This document shows positions 43,817 through 50,327 of a stretch of DNA of 64,000 nucleotides, piece after piece. Origin of the DNA: Escherichia phage HX01. The stretch lies in the sequence record NC_018855.1; one strand, 5' to 3'. Position 1 is the stretch's first letter. Every line of letters starts with the position of its first letter. Position numbers and translations under genes: made by a program. Below the pieces are notes generated by a model, which made no database searches, was not told where the DNA came from, and worked only from the letters and a program-made list of their open reading frames with translations.

Positions 43817-44452
43817 ATGAAAACTACTCCTATTACTATCGCTATTGACGCAATCATAAAACAAGCTTCTTCTTTGGTCGCTATGGCCAAAGTAATTAGT
43901 CAAAACCCTGCTCGTTATAATGCTATTCTAGAAACTCTTCGACGCCCAGGACTTAGTAATTATGAAAGCCGAGTAATTATTACAGGTGTTGGTAAGAATG
44001 CTAATATTGCAACTAAAGCTTCTGAGACATTTGCTTCACTCGGTATCCCGAGTATGTACTTGAACACTGGACATTATTCTCACGGTGATGCAGGATTCAT
44101 TGCGCCTAATGATGTGTTGATTCATATTAGTCGTTCTGGTAAAACTGAAGAAATGATAGGCGTGGCTAAGCATCTTAAAATGATTCGTCCGAACGTCAAA
44201 CAGATTCTGTTGCATTGTAACCCGGACATTCCACAAGAATACGAAGCTCTTTTTGATTATACGTTCTGTACAGGCATCGCAGTAGAGGTTGATGAGAATT
44301 CTCTGGCTCCGACCATGTCCACTACATTGTTGTTAGCGCTTATCGATACGTTTGCTATCAACCTTTCGTCTGAACGTGGATTTACCTCTAATGACTTCCT
44401 TAAGTTCCACCCTGGCGGTGCACTAGGTGCCATGTTACGAGGCGAACAATGA
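43817..44452 (+). CDS. SIS-domain sugar-phosphate isomerase (arabinose-5-phosphate isomerase / phosphoheptose isomerase-like)
   Basis: ITGVGKNANIATKASETF and HISRSGKTEE match SIS-domain signatures. Confidence 0.75.
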   Translation: MKTTPITIAIDAIIKQASSLVAMAKVISQNPARYNAILETLRRPGLSNYESRVIITGVGKNANIATKASETFASLGIPSMYLNTGHYSHGDAGFIAPNDVLIHISRSGKTEEMIGVAKHLKMIRPNVKQILLHCNPDIPQEYEALFDYTFCTGIAVEVDENSLAPTMSTTLLLALIDTFAINLSSERGFTSNDFLKFHPGGALGAMLRGEQ

Positions 44453-44592
44453 AAGCAATAACAATAGGACTTTTACTATTGATGCTTGTCATGACTATCT
44501 ACTGGAGCTTAACGACTCCAGTAATGATTCCGACTCTTATAATCGGATGGATTATGATTGGACTACAAGCAAAGTATGAATGCTTTAACTAG
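44449..44592 (+). CDS. 47-aa membrane peptide
   Basis: ATGA-coupled to SIS gene; two hydrophobic stretches; read manually. Confidence 0.4.
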   Translation: MKAITIGLLLLMLVMTIYWSLTTPVMIPTLIIGWIMIGLQAKYECFN

Positions 44593-44633
44593 AATAGTGT
44601 ACAATACTCCTACTTACCAATGAGGACCACAAC

Positions 44634-46319
44634 ATGAAAAAAGCTGTTATTCTTGGTGCTGGACTGGCAACTCGTTTGTATCCAATAACGCATCATATTC
44701 CTAAGGTGCTTGTTAACTATAAACAAGACACTATTCTGAGCAATTTGTATACAATTTATTCTGACCTTGGCGCAGATGAAATTATTGTAGTAGTTCATTC
44801 AAAATTTGCTGAAACTGTTCGAGCTTATTGTGAGCAAGAAGGGTTCAATGTGACTATTCGTACAGTTGATGAAGCGTATGGTTCTGCTTATGCTCTTGCT
44901 AAATTGCACAAAGATTTAGACGGCCATAATGTAATTGTTAACTGGTGTGATATTATTCCTGATTTTGGTTCATGGTCTTGGAATGTTAACGCAATCTATG
45001 TTAAAGGTGACGAATGTCGATATAATTTCGACGGTGAAAATATCACTAACGTAGGTTCAACAGGTGGTAATGTTGTAGGAATTTATCAGTTCAAAGACTG
45101 GGAATTCTATATGGGTTCTACCGATGAGGAAATTCATGAATACTGCAAAGGACGTGATTTCGTAGAATTCCTTTACGGCAGTGCATTCAATAAATCAGAG
45201 CTTATGAATCTAATTGATTTAGGTGATATGCCTAAACTTGAAAAGGCTCATGAAGTTCGTGAACTTAATCGTAGTTTTAATGCCGTTGAAATTGGTGAAG
45301 AAACTGTAACTAAATTCGCATTAACCGAACAAGGCCGAGCTCTTCAGAAAGATGAGATTTCATGGTATCTTAAAGTGAAATCAGATTCAGTTCCTCAGTT
45401 AGTTTCTGTTAATGAAAATAACTTTGAAATGGAACGCATTAAAGGTAAGCCGGCATTTGAATATATTAAATCCAAATCGAGTCTTGCTCGTCCACAAATT
45501 GTTGATGCAATTTTAGATGCACTGAAATTCAGCACAGACACTTATTTTGTAAGTCCTGAAACTGTTCGTCGTGATTTCACTAAAGAATTCTATACTAAAG
45601 TTATTGATCGTTGTGAAAGTATTCAACCATTGATTGATTCATTTGGTAAAATCACACATGTGAACTACACTAAGATTGGGCGTCTGAAGCCAATGTTGAA
45701 ACAAGCTTTAGAACACCTTATTCGTTATCATAACCGTTCTCAGGGACAGTACTCTGTTATTCATGGTGACCCGAACTTCAGTAATACTATGATTACTGAT
45801 AATGGTGAAGTCAAGTTTATCGACCCTCGTGGATATTTTGGTGAAACCAAGATTTATGGACCAAAATTGTACGACGAAGCTAAAGTGCTTTATGCTGTTT
45901 CAGGTTATGATGAATTCAACGCTAATCCGACCTGGGGACAGTTTACTATTGACGAAACAACTTGTAATGTGTCTATTAACATCAATCCATTAGTTTACAA
46001 ATATGGAAAGATGAGTTCGTTTAACGAGTATCATCATTTGGCAGTGGCAATTATCTGGATTGCATTAGGTGGTTATTTCAAGAATAATCCACTTAAAGCG
46101 GTAGCCGCATATTATAAAGGTATGGAACTTCTGACTAAGCAATTACGTAACATGGGCCGTGTACTTCAGGACGGCTCTATTAGTTATGACGTAGCAGAAC
46201 CTGTAACGGCTACTCTGATTACAAAAAATCCTGGTAAATGGGTACTAACTGATAAAGAAACTGGTGTTTCCTATCGTCCAATCGGTGGCGATATCACTCA
46301 TCAATGGGAACGAATCTAA
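44634..46319 (+). CDS. bifunctional sugar-1-phosphate nucleotidyltransferase / sugar kinase
   Basis: N-terminal GAGLATRLYPITHHIPKVL (G-x-G-T-R-x-x-P motif); C-terminal HGDPNFSNTMI and FIDPRGYFG (APH/ChoK-like kinase motifs). Confidence 0.75.
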   Translation: MKKAVILGAGLATRLYPITHHIPKVLVNYKQDTILSNLYTIYSDLGADEIIVVVHSKFAETVRAYCEQEGFNVTIRTVDEAYGSAYALAKLHKDLDGHNVIVNWCDIIPDFGSWSWNVNAIYVKGDECRYNFDGENITNVGSTGGNVVGIYQFKDWEFYMGSTDEEIHEYCKGRDFVEFLYGSAFNKSELMNLIDLGDMPKLEKAHEVRELNRSFNAVEIGEETVTKFALTEQGRALQKDEISWYLKVKSDSVPQLVSVNENNFEMERIKGKPAFEYIKSKSSLARPQIVDAILDALKFSTDTYFVSPETVRRDFTKEFYTKVIDRCESIQPLIDSFGKITHVNYTKIGRLKPMLKQALEHLIRYHNRSQGQYSVIHGDPNFSNTMITDNGEVKFIDPRGYFGETKIYGPKLYDEAKVLYAVSGYDEFNANPTWGQFTIDETTCNVSININPLVYKYGKMSSFNEYHHLAVAIIWIALGGYFKNNPLKAVAAYYKGMELLTKQLRNMGRVLQDGSISYDVAEPVTATLITKNPGKWVLTDKETGVSYRPIGGDITHQWERI

Positions 46320-46705
46320 TGCACCGTGTAGAAAACATGCTTAATCTTTGTTTTGATGTCGATGATTGTATAACAGAGTGGAATAACAACCGTGATTACG
46401 TGAACTTCAAACCAGACGTCGAAATGGTGACTGCCATTAATGCCCTGTACGATGCAGGGCATACCATAACGCTTTACACTGCTCGCGGTATGAAGTCAGT
46501 CGGTCCTGGTCGTATAGCAATTGACATTCTCCCAAGTCTGATTCAGAACTTGGCAAACATTGGATTGAAGTACCATAATTTGCTAACACATAAACCAGTA
46601 TATGATTGGATTATCGACGACAAAGCTATGCGTCCTGACGAATTCAAAGCTCTTATGAATAAAGGCGAATTCGAAACATTTAAATCATATAAACCGAATC
46701 TATAA
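46319..46705 (+). CDS. HAD-superfamily phosphatase
   Basis: Motif I FDVDDCIT; TAATG-coupled start at 46319. Confidence 0.65.
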   Translation: MHRVENMLNLCFDVDDCITEWNNNRDYVNFKPDVEMVTAINALYDAGHTITLYTARGMKSVGPGRIAIDILPSLIQNLANIGLKYHNLLTHKPVYDWIIDDKAMRPDEFKALMNKGEFETFKSYKPNL

Positions 46706-46762: not shown

Positions 46763-47923
46763 ATGAATACTTTTAAAATCGGAACGAATTTTGATTTAGC
46801 TCTTCTTGATAAAATCGTAGAGCTCAATAAAACTTATCCTAATAGCTTGATAAACGAAGTATACGGCTCTACAAGAGAAATGGCTTTTGTAGCAGCCAGA
46901 CCTGATTTTAGGCTTCCTGACGTTGACAAAAAGATGTTAGAAGATTATGTTAAACGTTGTAACGAATTAGGTATTTGCTTTAACTATACACTCAACACGA
47001 TAAATCCTGGTTCAAAAAGAGAACTAGTTGAGTGGAAGAAGAAAGCTATTCAGGATTATGTTCAGTATCTTTGGTCAATAGGCGTATGGCGTATTACTAT
47101 CGCTAACCCTGTTGTTATGGAAATTGTTCGTGAAGTCAATAAAGACATTGAGATTGAAGTTTCAACAATTCTACATGTCGATGCTGTAACTCAAATCAAA
47201 TACTTGCATGACCAATATAATATCAAAAAGGTCTGCTGTGGAATTCATAAGAACCGTTCAGTTTCTTTCCTGAAACGTGCAGCAGAGTTTTGTAATAAGA
47301 ACAATATAATATTTGAAGTTCTTGTAAATGAGTTCTGTTCTAATGCTGGTAAAGGGTACACAACACATTGTAGCTATCGTGACTCTTGCTATATTTTCCA
47401 TAGCACCGATGTTACAGTAGATGATGCCAAATCCTTAAATGGATATCCAATGCAACACTGTATTAAAGCTCGTGATACAGATCCATTTAACTGGTTGAGA
47501 ACTCGTTTTGTTCGTCCTCAAGATTTGAAACTTTATAATGATATTGGTATCACTCAATTTAAAGTTTCGGGACGTACAGGTAGCACAGACTACATTTTGA
47601 AAGTTCTTGAAGCTTATGCTTCTGAAAAGTTTGAAGGCAATTTGTTGGAATTGTGGAAGCCTTTAGAGACCATTTTCACTCTTGAAAATGAGACCGAGTT
47701 TTCACATACAGTAAATATTGAAACCTCTTTGTTAGACGGCTTTTTAGAAAAAAGGTGGTTCAAACATCCAGATTTCGATTGTGCTAATGAAATCTGCGGG
47801 ACGACGTGTACATATTGTGAAAGATATTATAAACGTCAGTTATCTAAAAATGGGTTATCAGAAAACTCTATATCTATTATTGATATAACTAACTCTGATG
47901 ACGCTTTGAGGTACCCAGAATGA
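46763..47923 (+). CDS. peptidase-U32-family-like protein with Cys cluster
   Basis: FKVSGRTGS resembles the U32 LKIEGRTKS motif; EFCSNAGKGYTTHCSYRDSC and C-terminal CANEICGTTCTYC. Confidence 0.5.
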   Translation: MNTFKIGTNFDLALLDKIVELNKTYPNSLINEVYGSTREMAFVAARPDFRLPDVDKKMLEDYVKRCNELGICFNYTLNTINPGSKRELVEWKKKAIQDYVQYLWSIGVWRITIANPVVMEIVREVNKDIEIEVSTILHVDAVTQIKYLHDQYNIKKVCCGIHKNRSVSFLKRAAEFCNKNNIIFEVLVNEFCSNAGKGYTTHCSYRDSCYIFHSTDVTVDDAKSLNGYPMQHCIKARDTDPFNWLRTRFVRPQDLKLYNDIGITQFKVSGRTGSTDYILKVLEAYASEKFEGNLLELWKPLETIFTLENETEFSHTVNIETSLLDGFLEKRWFKHPDFDCANEICGTTCTYCERYYKRQLSKNGLSENSISIIDITNSDDALRYPE

Positions 47924-48000
47924 TTTCTAGAAAAACTTTTAACCACCAACTTAACGAAGAGATTTTGACTATTAAAATTAACAGCAACGAACAAATTCTT

Positions 48001-48025
48001 AAAAAGGCCCATAAGGGCCTTTTTG
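48001..48025 (+). terminator. possible terminator
   Basis: AAAAAGGCCC-ATAA-GGGCCTTTTT; lies inside a possible 51-aa ORF. Confidence 0.4.
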
Positions 48026-48161
48026 AAACTAAAGCGGCTAAAGTGATTAAAGAACCTGTTCAACTAGAATACTAAGCCGAAGCTCTACGTTATATCAACA
48101 TCGCTAAGAAATTCAAATAAGCTTTATGAATTGAGTATATAATAACTGTATTGAGGTAAAC

Positions 48162-48878
48162 ATGGGAAAACATAACACAATGAAATATATTAAAGCCGCA
48201 GATTTTCAATCCGCATTTAAAGCTGTCAATCGTGAAATTTTAGAAAATCCACAGTTCATTACTGATTCTCGTATTGGACGTTGTAATGAAATTGGGTCTA
48301 TGACAGTAGTTGTTGATACCCCTTCATCATTCAAAATGACCGACCCACGTATTAATCGCATCTCTTATGAATATGCTGAAGATTTCTGGAAATTTATGAT
48401 TTCTGGTGGTACTGATGCAAAAGAAGCATTTAAGGCATATCCTAACGTCGCTAAATTTATTTCTAAACCTAAATCAGACGCTTTGCCTGCAAACTTCAAC
48501 ACTTTCTATGGTCCACGAATTGCGGCCCAGTTACCAACTCTTCTAAAAGAACTTAAAGAAAAACCTAACTCTCGAAGAGTTGTGTTCCAAATTCTAGAAA
48601 GTTCTGATCAGGCTTTGCTTGATTCAGACGAAACACTTGAATATCCATGTACTGACTCAGTGACTTATTATATTCGTGATGGTAAGCTTTATACCCACTG
48701 TCATATGCGTTCTCAGAACTGTGCTGTTGTTATGCAGTTGGATTTTTATCTCCAAGGAAAATTACTTCATTATATCGCTAACGAATGTGGTGTAGAAGTT
48801 GGTGATTATACTCATACCATGGTAAGTGCCCATGTGTTTGAACGTGATTTTGATTATGTTAAAGGATTCCTTGACTAA
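48162..48878 (+). CDS. 42: thymidylate-synthase-fold pyrimidine hydroxymethylase (gene 42-like, divergent)
   Basis: RRVVFQI, PCTDSVTYYIRDGKLYTHCHMRSQN, QLDF align to TS / dCMP-hydroxymethylase core motifs, with Asp at the cytosine-specificity position. Confidence 0.65.
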   Translation: MGKHNTMKYIKAADFQSAFKAVNREILENPQFITDSRIGRCNEIGSMTVVVDTPSSFKMTDPRINRISYEYAEDFWKFMISGGTDAKEAFKAYPNVAKFISKPKSDALPANFNTFYGPRIAAQLPTLLKELKEKPNSRRVVFQILESSDQALLDSDETLEYPCTDSVTYYIRDGKLYTHCHMRSQNCAVVMQLDFYLQGKLLHYIANECGVEVGDYTHTMVSAHVFERDFDYVKGFLD

Positions 48879-49777
48879 TGGCTATTTTCCGCGTACCTAT
48901 TTTGAGTATGCGGTCTTATGAAACTGGACAGTATGCTATCCTTAAGGATGGCAACTTCCAACTTCATTTGCACCGTGCTAATCCGGGTGATGTGATTACA
49001 TATCCACGTAATGCATCTGATATTAAAGAATGTGAACGTCTTTTCCCAGAATTTAAGTTTGTTCCATTATGGTATAAAGATAACGCATATAACACTCGTA
49101 AATATTTCTGGTCTGAAAATGAATTTGTGGTTGATTCATTAATTGATTATTATGATTGTGATTTTCTAATCACAGATATCACTGGATATGACGGCACTTT
49201 TGACGTAGAATTCAATTTCAATATCACTGCAGACCCTAATAAACCACGTTTTTATATTGACGAATTCTTAAAAACCGACATGTTGTCTGTTAATCGTTCA
49301 CTTCAAACTACTGTGTTGAATGAACGTCAAAAAGAAGTGCTGGTTAACGCAGGTGCAGATGGTAATAAGATTATCGTAACGCAGAAAGTTATACGTCCTT
49401 CCATCATGCAGCGTCTTGTAGGTGATTTGGCCCCTATTCATCTAGATGGTATTTTTCATCCATTTCGAATTAGTGACCCGTGTTATCGTTTTGAACAAGT
49501 GGTTGAATGCGCAATTCAATTAGGTCAACCGCTTTATATAACCGATCCAAATAATAGCTTCGACAGAAATAAGTATCCTGAAGAAGCACTGATTCGAATT
49601 TTTAAACCAACTAAAACTGAGTACTATCAAATTCTTAAAGGAAGACCGAAGATTCAATATTTCGAAAATCCTGAAGAAGTATTCCATCCAGGTCTTGGCG
49701 AGTTCATCTACTTTAACGCTTTAATTTCTTCACCGTATAATATACCTAAATATGAAGATGTCGTAATCGAGGAATAA
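48878..49777 (+). CDS. hypothetical protein; candidate DNA glycosyltransferase by position
   Basis: 299 aa in the slot where T4 has beta-gt; no diagnostic motif recognised. Confidence 0.35.
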   Translation: MAIFRVPILSMRSYETGQYAILKDGNFQLHLHRANPGDVITYPRNASDIKECERLFPEFKFVPLWYKDNAYNTRKYFWSENEFVVDSLIDYYDCDFLITDITGYDGTFDVEFNFNITADPNKPRFYIDEFLKTDMLSVNRSLQTTVLNERQKEVLVNAGADGNKIIVTQKVIRPSIMQRLVGDLAPIHLDGIFHPFRISDPCYRFEQVVECAIQLGQPLYITDPNNSFDRNKYPEEALIRIFKPTKTEYYQILKGRPKIQYFENPEEVFHPGLGEFIYFNALISSPYNIPKYEDVVIEE

Positions 49778-49778
49778 A

Positions 49779-50327
49779 ATGGCTAAAATTATTTTAGTAG
49801 ATGGCCCAGATAATGCTGGTAAAACAACTTTCATTAATGACATAATGGAAATTAGTGAAAGATATGTAAAGATTGATTTCCCTAAACGAACAGTTGATGG
49901 ACGTTTCGATGTTAAGTCTCGAAATGAAGTTGGCTGTTTCGAAACGATGTTGAATTATTTAGACCCTACTAAGATTTATCTGTTAGACCGTGGATATATT
50001 AGTAACTGGGTTTATGGACGTATTCGACAAGATGCGGACTCGGTTCTTGACGTTTATGAACAGGATTATGTTCGTCTTTGCCAAAACCATGATGTGTTCA
50101 CAATTATTTTAACACGTAACGAAATGACTGAAAGTTTTGAAGACGACCTTATTACTTTGTCTTCATTCGGTTTTAATACAGTCATTTCATATTTTGAAGA
50201 GTTTGCAATTCATAACGAAATCCAAACGTATCAATTACTTAATCATGATGGTGCTAACAAAGTTATAGGATTTAATGCAAGCGAACGTAATGGTTTGATT
50301 ACAGAAATTATCAAATGGGCTCGTTAA
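49779..50327 (+). CDS. P-loop kinase (nucleoside/nucleotide or small-molecule kinase-like)
   Basis: Walker A VDGPDNAGKTT, LLDRGY motif. Confidence 0.6.
   Translation: MAKIILVDGPDNAGKTTFINDIMEISERYVKIDFPKRTVDGRFDVKSRNEVGCFETMLNYLDPTKIYLLDRGYISNWVYGRIRQDADSVLDVYEQDYVRLCQNHDVFTIILTRNEMTESFEDDLITLSSFGFNTVISYFEEFAIHNEIQTYQLLNHDGANKVIGFNASERNGLITEIIKWAR

Follow-up and report, generated by a model that had tools for sequence, protein, structure and literature searches.

The stretch of DNA analysed here, referred to below as the window, comprises 64,000 nucleotides of Escherichia phage HX01 (sequence record NC_018855.1). It contains an open reading frame (ORF) of 299 codons, beginning with ATG, which is located between a gene of the ThyA family and a gene encoding a 182-aa protein that resembles thymidylate kinases (Table 1). 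The start codon of the 299-aa ORF and the stop codon of the upstream gene overlap by one base (TAATG), and the 182-aa gene begins one base past the stop codon of the 299-aa ORF (TAAAATG). The 299-aa gene is translationally coupled to the upstream gene, which, as outlined below, encodes a 5-hydroxy-dCMP synthase. A scan for sigma-70 promoters and terminators around this three-gene unit remained at chance level (13 sites, compared to 10.8 expected).

Table 1. Genes of the arabinosylation island and of the adjoining three-gene unit in the window.
Feature	Position	Strand	Assignment and supporting matches
SIS-domain arabinose-5-phosphate isomerase	43817..44452	+	Pfam SIS, PHROG 5670, NCBIfam KpsF/KdsD; putative first donor step
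561-aa bifunctional sugar kinase and sugar-1-P uridylyltransferase	44634..46319	+	Pfam NTP_transferase, weak kinase matches; AfhE-like, RB69 gp52:53
133-aa HAD-like phosphatase	46304..46705	+	PHROG 1238, NCBIfam capsule biosynthesis phosphatase; AfhF-like, RB69 gp51
386-aa U32-family protein	46763..47923	+	Pfam Peptidase_U32 (E 6e-11), weak UbiU match; RB69 gp50
51-aa ORF	47920..48075	+	chorismate mutase slot of related phages; truncated relative to RB69p049 (79 aa)
ThyA-family dCMP 5-hydroxylase (5-hydroxy-dCMP synthase)	48162..48878	+	putative supply of the acceptor base; identity to PDB 9iqc/9ir2, D169N
299-aa GT-B-fold protein (predicted)	48878..49777	+	candidate first (base-proximal) arabinosyltransferase; PHROG 3891
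182-aa thymidylate-kinase-like P-loop protein	49779..50327	+	PHROG 761 (E 1e-44); RB69 gp45

In the window the genes are ordered ThyA homolog, 299-aa ORF, 182-aa ORF, uvsX, gp40 and gp41, while the order in the T4 record is 43, imm, 42, beta-gt, (segA), uvsX, 40 and 41. The initial annotation placed the ORF in the position of the T4 beta-glucosyltransferase gene and noted that the product is shorter and shares no obvious sequence with that enzyme. These statements agree with the present data: the T4 record itself places beta-gt between gene 42 and uvsX, the two proteins have 299 and 351 residues, respectively, and an hhalign comparison of the 299-aa family with T4 beta-gt gave a probability of 0.09%. 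A tblastn search with beta-gt across the window gave no match, and the 299-aa gene is the sole glycosyltransferase-type gene found in these 64 kb.

The 299-aa protein matches PHROG 3891 (E 4e-156). It is 100% identical in Escherichia phage AV117 and about 99% identical in other Mosigvirus (RB69-like) phages. Its orthologs include RB69 gp46:47, which differs at four amino-acid positions, HY126 XAN60474 (99.3% identical, annotated as hypothetical), DLP3 gp79, as well as Thanatos TH1_063 (48% identity over the full length, E 7e-87), the gene of which likewise follows a ThyA homolog. In the RB69 reference genome the gene is split into two annotated ORFs, RB69p047 and RB69p046. Alignment of the two loci revealed an extra T at ORF position 545 of the RB69 record in addition to 22 substitutions over 900 nt, and therefore the window holds the intact version of gp46:47, the RB69 reference copy being split by the additional base. 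Because the codon changes between the window and RB69 are mainly synonymous (17, compared to 4 non-synonymous) and because homologs are found in 347 phage genomes, the ORF is evidently a real gene under purifying selection.

The family was found in 347 phage records and the ThyA-family hydroxylase in 344, in the same genera, with equal counts for the two families in Escherichia, Acinetobacter, Klebsiella, Shigella, Proteus and Yersinia phages, i.e., the two proteins co-occur almost one-to-one across about 345 annotated phage genomes. More distant homologs (37-39% identity) are encoded on two viral contigs of 122 kb and 355 kb (metagenomic loci L005 and L006), where the order of a ThyA homolog carrying D169N, the glycosyltransferase (GT) homolog and a protein of about 183 residues is preserved. 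When 1.84 billion representative proteins were searched exhaustively with a profile, only 227 relatives were obtained; a Pfam GT domain is absent from all relatives that were scanned, so that no link by sequence to known GT families was found. In GenBank, members of the family carry the product names "hypothetical protein" or "RNA polymerase binding protein", and in a few recent entries "glycosyltransferase".

The initial annotation described the gene as lying directly downstream of a hydroxymethylase, and the neighbouring gene is labelled "dCMP hydroxymethylase" also in GenBank. The adjacency to a ThyA-family gene stands, while the assigned activity does not. The upstream enzyme is identical at 236 of 238 positions to the HY126 enzyme (PDB 9iqc/9ir2) and is 97.9% identical to RB69 gp48; an alignment with E. 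coli ThyA and T4 gp42 revealed the changes D169N and N177D. The residue equivalent to E. coli ThyA D169 is Asn in the window enzyme, RB69 gp48, Thanatos TH1_062 and the metagenomic neighbour, and Asp in T4 gp42 and in gp42 of Serratia phage PS2. D169N is the published diagnostic residue of 5-hydroxy-dCMP synthases. According to published work, RB69 gp48 forms 5-hydroxy-dC in vivo with flavin and O2, and RB69 DNA carries beta-D-Araf-(1-3)-alpha-D-Araf joined directly at O5 of 5-hydroxy-dC (PMC13326640). An earlier assignment of the RB69-type base as arabinosyl-hydroxymethylcytosine was corrected there, and a second paper agrees. Given this 99% identity to the flavin-dependent dCMP 5-hydroxylase of HY126/RB69, together with D169N in the upstream enzyme, the acceptor base is, as judged by sequence, 5-hydroxycytosine rather than hydroxymethylcytosine (hmC). 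The suggestion that the sugar is attached to hmC is thus refuted by the identity of the upstream enzyme.

It had also been suggested that the gene is part of an island that provides an NDP-sugar, which is borne out, and the sugar can now be named. The isomerase, the 561-aa enzyme and the phosphatase (43817-46705) match the published UDP-D-arabinofuranose (UDP-Araf) pathway of HY126, the phage used for its biochemical dissection, in which AfhE acts as a kinase and UDP-arabinose pyrophosphorylase (He et al., as cited in PMC13326640), an AfhF-like phosphatase has a role and UDP is the carrier of D-arabinofuranose (PMC13326640). The island would thus supply UDP-Araf, and the 299-aa gene belongs to this island.

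The island also harbors a U32-family gene, the product of which is tabulated in RB69 (gp50) as "sugar or heterocycle reductase", without discussion (PMC13326640). All 220 phage matches to this protein are at least 80% identical to it, including that of Thanatos (81%). The gene is found in enterobacterial and Shewanella phages; the 57 Acinetobacter phage records with the remaining genes of the module all lack it. A chorismate mutase gene lies immediately downstream of the U32 gene in Serratia phage LC53 and in Thanatos. The U32 family includes RlhA, which forms 5-hydroxycytidine in rRNA, as well as TrhP and UbiU/V, which perform O2-independent hydroxylation with the chorismate mutase product prephenate (PMC5727448, PMC6599085, PMC10990095). 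A direct comparison of the phage protein with RlhA using BLASTP gave no significant similarity. By analogy, a possible O2-independent route to the 5-hydroxyl group, involving the U32 protein, is suggested for phages of facultative anaerobes.

A structure prediction and a fold search had been proposed as a check of the transferase assignment of the 299-aa protein, and the predicted fold is indeed that of a GT-B glycosyltransferase. The AF2 model (pLDDT 94.9, pTM 0.89) displays two Rossmann-like beta/alpha/beta domains across a cleft. Foldseek returned matches at a probability of 1.00 with a top TM-score of 0.62, to MshA; the scores to GT4 transferases were 0.58-0.62, compared to 0.45-0.52 for GT-B-fold UDP-sugar 2-epimerases. 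The closest structural matches include enzymes that act on small phosphorylated acceptors (sucrose-phosphate synthase and MshA). The protein is thus predicted to be a compact GT-B-fold glycosyltransferase. Residues that are invariant in the family are found in both halves, i.e., S10-M11-R12-S13 and K23-D24-G25-N26 in the N-terminal (acceptor) half and R197, D200, Y203, T222, P224-N225, K246 and H270-P271-G272 in the C-terminal (donor) half. R197, which follows the first strand of the C-terminal domain, K246, H270-P271-G272 and the near-invariant E275 are at topologically suitable positions for a donor site, where the assignment to donor and acceptor sites is based on the GT-B topology and not on superposition on ligand complexes.

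At the level of sequence, the initial annotation reported that no diagnostic motif was found, which still holds, and a point that weighs against a transferase role is that no sequence method assigns the family to any GT family. NCBIfam and Pfam returned nothing for the 299-aa protein, and none of the Pfam GT models matched any of 49 diverse family members at E<=10. Searches of PDB sequences with the single sequence or with the 49-member family profile gave no significant match, the family does not match the CAZy GT4 / Pfam Glycos_transf_1 profile, and hhalign of the family against the GT4-like RB69 ORF003c gave 0.7%. The overall charge was also considered as an indicator of DNA binding (median pI 5.15 for the family and 9.05 for T4 beta-gt); it does not settle the matter, since acidic pI values also occur among known or presumed DNA glycosyltransferases (PS2 beta-gt, 5.85; ORF003c, 6.33).

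From the combination of predicted fold, orthology and genomic context we infer that the 299-aa protein is probably the first arabinosyltransferase on 5-hydroxycytosine and that it acts on DNA. In this scheme the isomerase, kinase/uridylyltransferase and phosphatase encoded upstream would provide UDP-Araf, from which the 299-aa protein would move D-arabinofuranose to the 5-hydroxyl of 5-hydroxycytosine (5hoC). This transfer would yield the base-proximal alpha-D-Araf-O5-dC found in Mosigvirus DNA, to which a second arabinose would be added by a separate ORF003c-type transferase, encoded outside the window. The acceptor is most likely 5hoC that is already part of phage DNA, where the base would be flipped out of the helix, in the manner of the T4 glucosyltransferases. 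The ORF003c-type transferase was put forward in 2018 as an arabinosyltransferase; this family was found in only 210 records, which are confined to Mosigvirus and Acinetobacter phages, and the Acinetobacter phages have two copies. The number of GT genes also follows the published number of sugars, i.e., one in the mono-arabinosylated Thanatos, two in the di-arabinosylated RB69 and three in the tri-arabinosylated DLP3. Because the ORF003c type is restricted to di- and tri-arabinosylated phages, the 299-aa protein is the candidate for addition of the first, base-proximal sugar.

This role is already known as a proposal from papers of 2025-2026. RB69 gp46:47 was proposed independently, from structure and synteny, to be "arabinosyltransferase 1" (PMC13326640, Nucleic Acids Res 2026), and a biochemical proof of the first transfer was not found in the accessible literature. 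When purified individually, the DLP3 transferases, including gp79, did not arabinosylate 5hoC-DNA with UDP-Araf or UDP-Arap, and the authors state that their own experiments do not separate a first arabinosylation at the mononucleotide level from one that takes place after replication (PMC13326640).

Other functions have to be considered for a protein at this position. The genomic location is that of beta-gt in T4 and both proteins have a GT-B fold, which would fit a diverged equivalent of T4 beta-glucosyltransferase that glycosylates hydroxymethylcytosine; this reading is hardly tenable, because the upstream enzyme is a 5-hydroxylase and not a hydroxymethylase, RB69-type DNA has arabinose on 5-hydroxycytosine (PMC13326640) and the hhalign comparison noted above detected no relationship. 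It is very improbable that the 299-aa protein makes the donor as a UDP-pentose pyrophosphorylase, as reported for Thanatos TH1_063, of which the purified protein formed UDP-xylose from UTP and xylose-1-P (PMC12838424). TH1_063 is a true homolog of the 299-aa protein, but the predicted fold is GT-B and not that of a nucleotidyltransferase, the NTP_transferase domain of the island is found in the 561-aa neighbour, and both the kinase and the UDP-arabinose pyrophosphorylase activities are ascribed to AfhE in HY126. Transfer assays with TH1_063 were negative; however, the acceptors (unmodified plasmid, dCMP, dCTP and cytosine) do not have a 5-hydroxyl group (PMC12838424), and these assays are therefore uninformative about transferase activity. 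Furthermore, with a pyrophosphorylase in this position Thanatos-like phages would be left without any transferase. A similar deficit, i.e., a missing transferase for the first sugar, would arise if the protein were a GT-B-fold non-transferase such as an NDP-sugar 2-epimerase with the donor as its substrate, which we regard as slightly less probable still than a pyrophosphorylase. The structural similarity to epimerases is lower than that to GT4 transferases, Pfam Epimerase_2 was unmatched among the family and the published UDP-Araf pathway does not require an epimerase (PMC13326640).

The question of whether the substrate is DNA or a nucleotide is linked to the gene that follows. The 182-aa kinase-like family was found in 342 phage records, as compared to 347 for the GT, in the same genera, and its gene always adjoins that of the GT in phages. 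In addition, four fusion proteins (P0234, P0237, P0256 and P0259) were identified in which a phrog_3891 GT is N-terminal and a phrog_761/Thymidylate_kin domain is C-terminal; the gene of one of the four lies among SIS, NTP-transferase/kinase and U32 genes, in what can be recognised as an arabinosylation island. BLASTP of the 182-aa protein of the window against the fusion proteins gave nothing, and the link is through the PHROG 761 and Pfam Thymidylate_kin profiles only. What is new here is that the GT is always paired with a kinase-like protein, to which it is fused in four distant relatives.

Because of this constant pairing and the fusions, both DNA and nucleotides are in play as GT substrates. 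The GT could arabinosylate a free nucleotide before replication, followed by the action of the kinase, or act on DNA only when in complex with the kinase, a pair of options that we consider unlikely when taken together. Slightly less likely is the specific route in which the first arabinose is set on free 5-hydroxy-dCMP by the GT, the paired kinase phosphorylates the product and the polymerase uses the glycosylated dCTP analogue. Apart from the invariable adjacency, with a gap of one base between the two genes, and the fusions, the gene order of hydroxylase, GT and kinase parallels the order of reactions at the nucleotide level. The gp1-type dNMP kinase of these phages already accepts 5hodCMP, which leaves a second kinase without an obvious job, and DLP3 gp79 alone is inactive on 5hoC-DNA (PMC13326640). 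The small phosphorylated acceptors of the closest structural matches are also consistent with such a route, as is Rhizobium phage RL38J1, where a kinase-GT-hydroxylase trio is retained with different sugars. On the other hand, expression of the hydroxylase together with a gp1-type kinase suffices to obtain unglycosylated 5hodC in DNA, i.e., there is a GT-free route, and the later arabinoses go onto DNA (PMC13326640). Adjacency and fusion indicate a shared pathway rather than a specific step, and the kinase could be a dedicated 5hodCMP kinase. [quoted passage not shown] The pairing and fusion with a kinase-like protein suggest why the GT failed when used alone in vitro.

Among the characterised systems, T4 beta-glucosyltransferase belongs to CAZy family GT63 and the alpha-glucosyltransferase to GT72. 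The proposed likeness of the 299-aa protein to these enzymes is that of a phage GT-B enzyme that glycosylates a substituent at C5 of cytosine with a UDP-sugar as donor. In T4 these are the hydroxymethyl group and glucose, whereas 5-hydroxycytosine and a pentofuranose are proposed here; in contrast to the T4 glucosyltransferases the 299-aa protein is acidic, 50-100 residues shorter and has a kinase-like partner, and no relationship to T4 beta-gt was detectable. Retaining GT4 enzymes (sucrose-phosphate synthase, BshA, MshA and PimA) are 7-12% identical to the 299-aa protein, which is about 60-100 residues shorter. RB69 ORF003c and the HY126 glycosyltransferase (PDB 9iqz, and 9ir0 with UDP), i.e., the proposed second-sugar enzyme, display no detectable sequence similarity. 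The 299-aa protein is a member of the RB69 gp46:47 / DLP3 gp79 family by orthology, where the function is a proposal (PMC13326640). Thanatos, a mono-pentosylated phage, has TH1_063 as its sole GT-fold gene, and the UDP-xylose pyrophosphorylase activity reported for TH1_063 (PMC12838424) conflicts with the GT-B fold.

With arabinosylated 5-hydroxycytosine in their DNA, many T4-like phages are protected from restriction enzymes as well as from CRISPR systems that target DNA; some of these phages are candidates for therapy against E. coli, Klebsiella and Acinetobacter. Attachment of the first sugar is the key step, and with a working first transferase glycosylated DNA could be synthesised enzymatically. 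Hundreds of GenBank records, covering the GT family and the hydroxylase neighbour, could gain a new annotation.

A relative of the GT is also found in Serratia phage PS2, a phage with hmC and beta-gt, where a degenerate, full-length homolog is encoded right after gene 42. This homolog was detected by hhalign at 99% with a sequence identity of 19%, and most of the invariant motifs are gone.

The U32-family protein of the island (RB69 gp50) displays at least 80% identity throughout 220 phages whose hosts are enterobacteria and Shewanella. It is missing in all Acinetobacter phage records that harbor the remainder of the module (57 of 57); Acinetobacter is a strict aerobe. Members of the U32 family such as RlhA, TrhP and UbiU/V are prephenate-dependent hydroxylases that operate independently of O2, and the product of RlhA is 5-hydroxycytidine (PMC5727448, PMC6599085, PMC10990095). 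The island protein may allow 5-hydroxycytosine to be formed anaerobically. The gene directly 3' of the U32-family gene in Serratia LC53 and Thanatos encodes a chorismate mutase. At this position the window harbors a 51-aa ORF, which a deletion has shortened in comparison with the 79 aa of RB69p049. Neither copy gives a CM_2 match, so that the gene at the chorismate mutase position looks as if it is decaying within Mosigvirus. On two large metagenomic viral contigs, Flavodoxin_2-type genes, which are NAD(P)H-dependent FMN reductase-like, are located near the D169N ThyA homolog, an arrangement that would fit a supply of reduced flavin to the flavin-dependent hydroxylase.

Immediately 3' of the gene for the GT-B-fold protein (GT, the candidate arabinosyltransferase), the window encodes a thymidylate-kinase-like protein with an intact P-loop (GPDNAGKT), which occurs in 342 phage records and is distributed among phages in the same way as the GT. 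Phages carrying this protein also encode a gp1-type dNMP kinase (PMC13326640). The same protein type constitutes the kinase-like half of natural fusions in which it is joined to a GT domain (PHROG 3891), as seen in family members P0234, P0237, P0256 and P0259. Other architectures of the GT family include a long-form subfamily (P0079−P0120; about 345−380 aa), which is located on viral contigs of very large size, reaching 355 kb, and is characterized by an internal insert and a C-terminal extension of ~50 aa. Some further distant members harbor an N-terminal extension of ~185 aa with weak similarity to HAD hydrolases.

Serratia phage PS2 glucosylates hmC and encodes a true hydroxymethylase, beta-gt and beta-alpha-gt. 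Directly 3' of gene 42 it also harbors FF83_gp042, which is homologous to the GT family along its full length (hhalign 99%, 19% identity). Because the SMRS, KDGN, PFRxxD, DPN and HPG motifs of the family have all been lost, this homolog is, judged from its sequence, either a relic or a protein that has acquired a new function.

In the RB69 reference record, the GT gene is broken into RB69p047 and RB69p046 by a single additional T at position 545 of the ORF. The nearly invariant Asn113 of the family is Ile in the same record, which may reflect a second sequencing error. Inconsistent labels are widespread in public records, where the GT is named "hypothetical protein" or "putative RNA polymerase binding protein" (LC53, vB_EcoM_005) and the 5-hydroxylase "dCMP hydroxymethylase" or "thymidylate synthase".

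Coordinates of the features discussed (L001, RB69 locus; L005 and L006, metagenomic viral contigs; L007, Serratia phage PS2 locus; L004 and L012−L014, further compared loci)
Feature	Location	Strand	Family or record
U32-family protein	window 46763-47923	+	U32 family
U32-family, further loci (side observation)	L012:4992-6502; L004:36927-38317; L013:11024-12124; L014:2605-3552		
51-aa ORF, chorismate mutase position	window 47920-48075	+	
182-aa thymidylate-kinase-like protein	window 49779-50327	+	PHROG 761
GT/thymidylate-kinase-like fusions and N-terminally extended GT members (side observation)	L013:6001-7725; L014:762-2561		
Long-form GT, example	L005:8001-9146		
Flavodoxin_2-type genes	L005:1-523; L006:6739-7293		
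FF83_gp042 (308 aa)	L007:4001-4927		Serratia phage PS2
RB69 GT locus	L001:3598-4498		RB69 NC_004928 24597-25497
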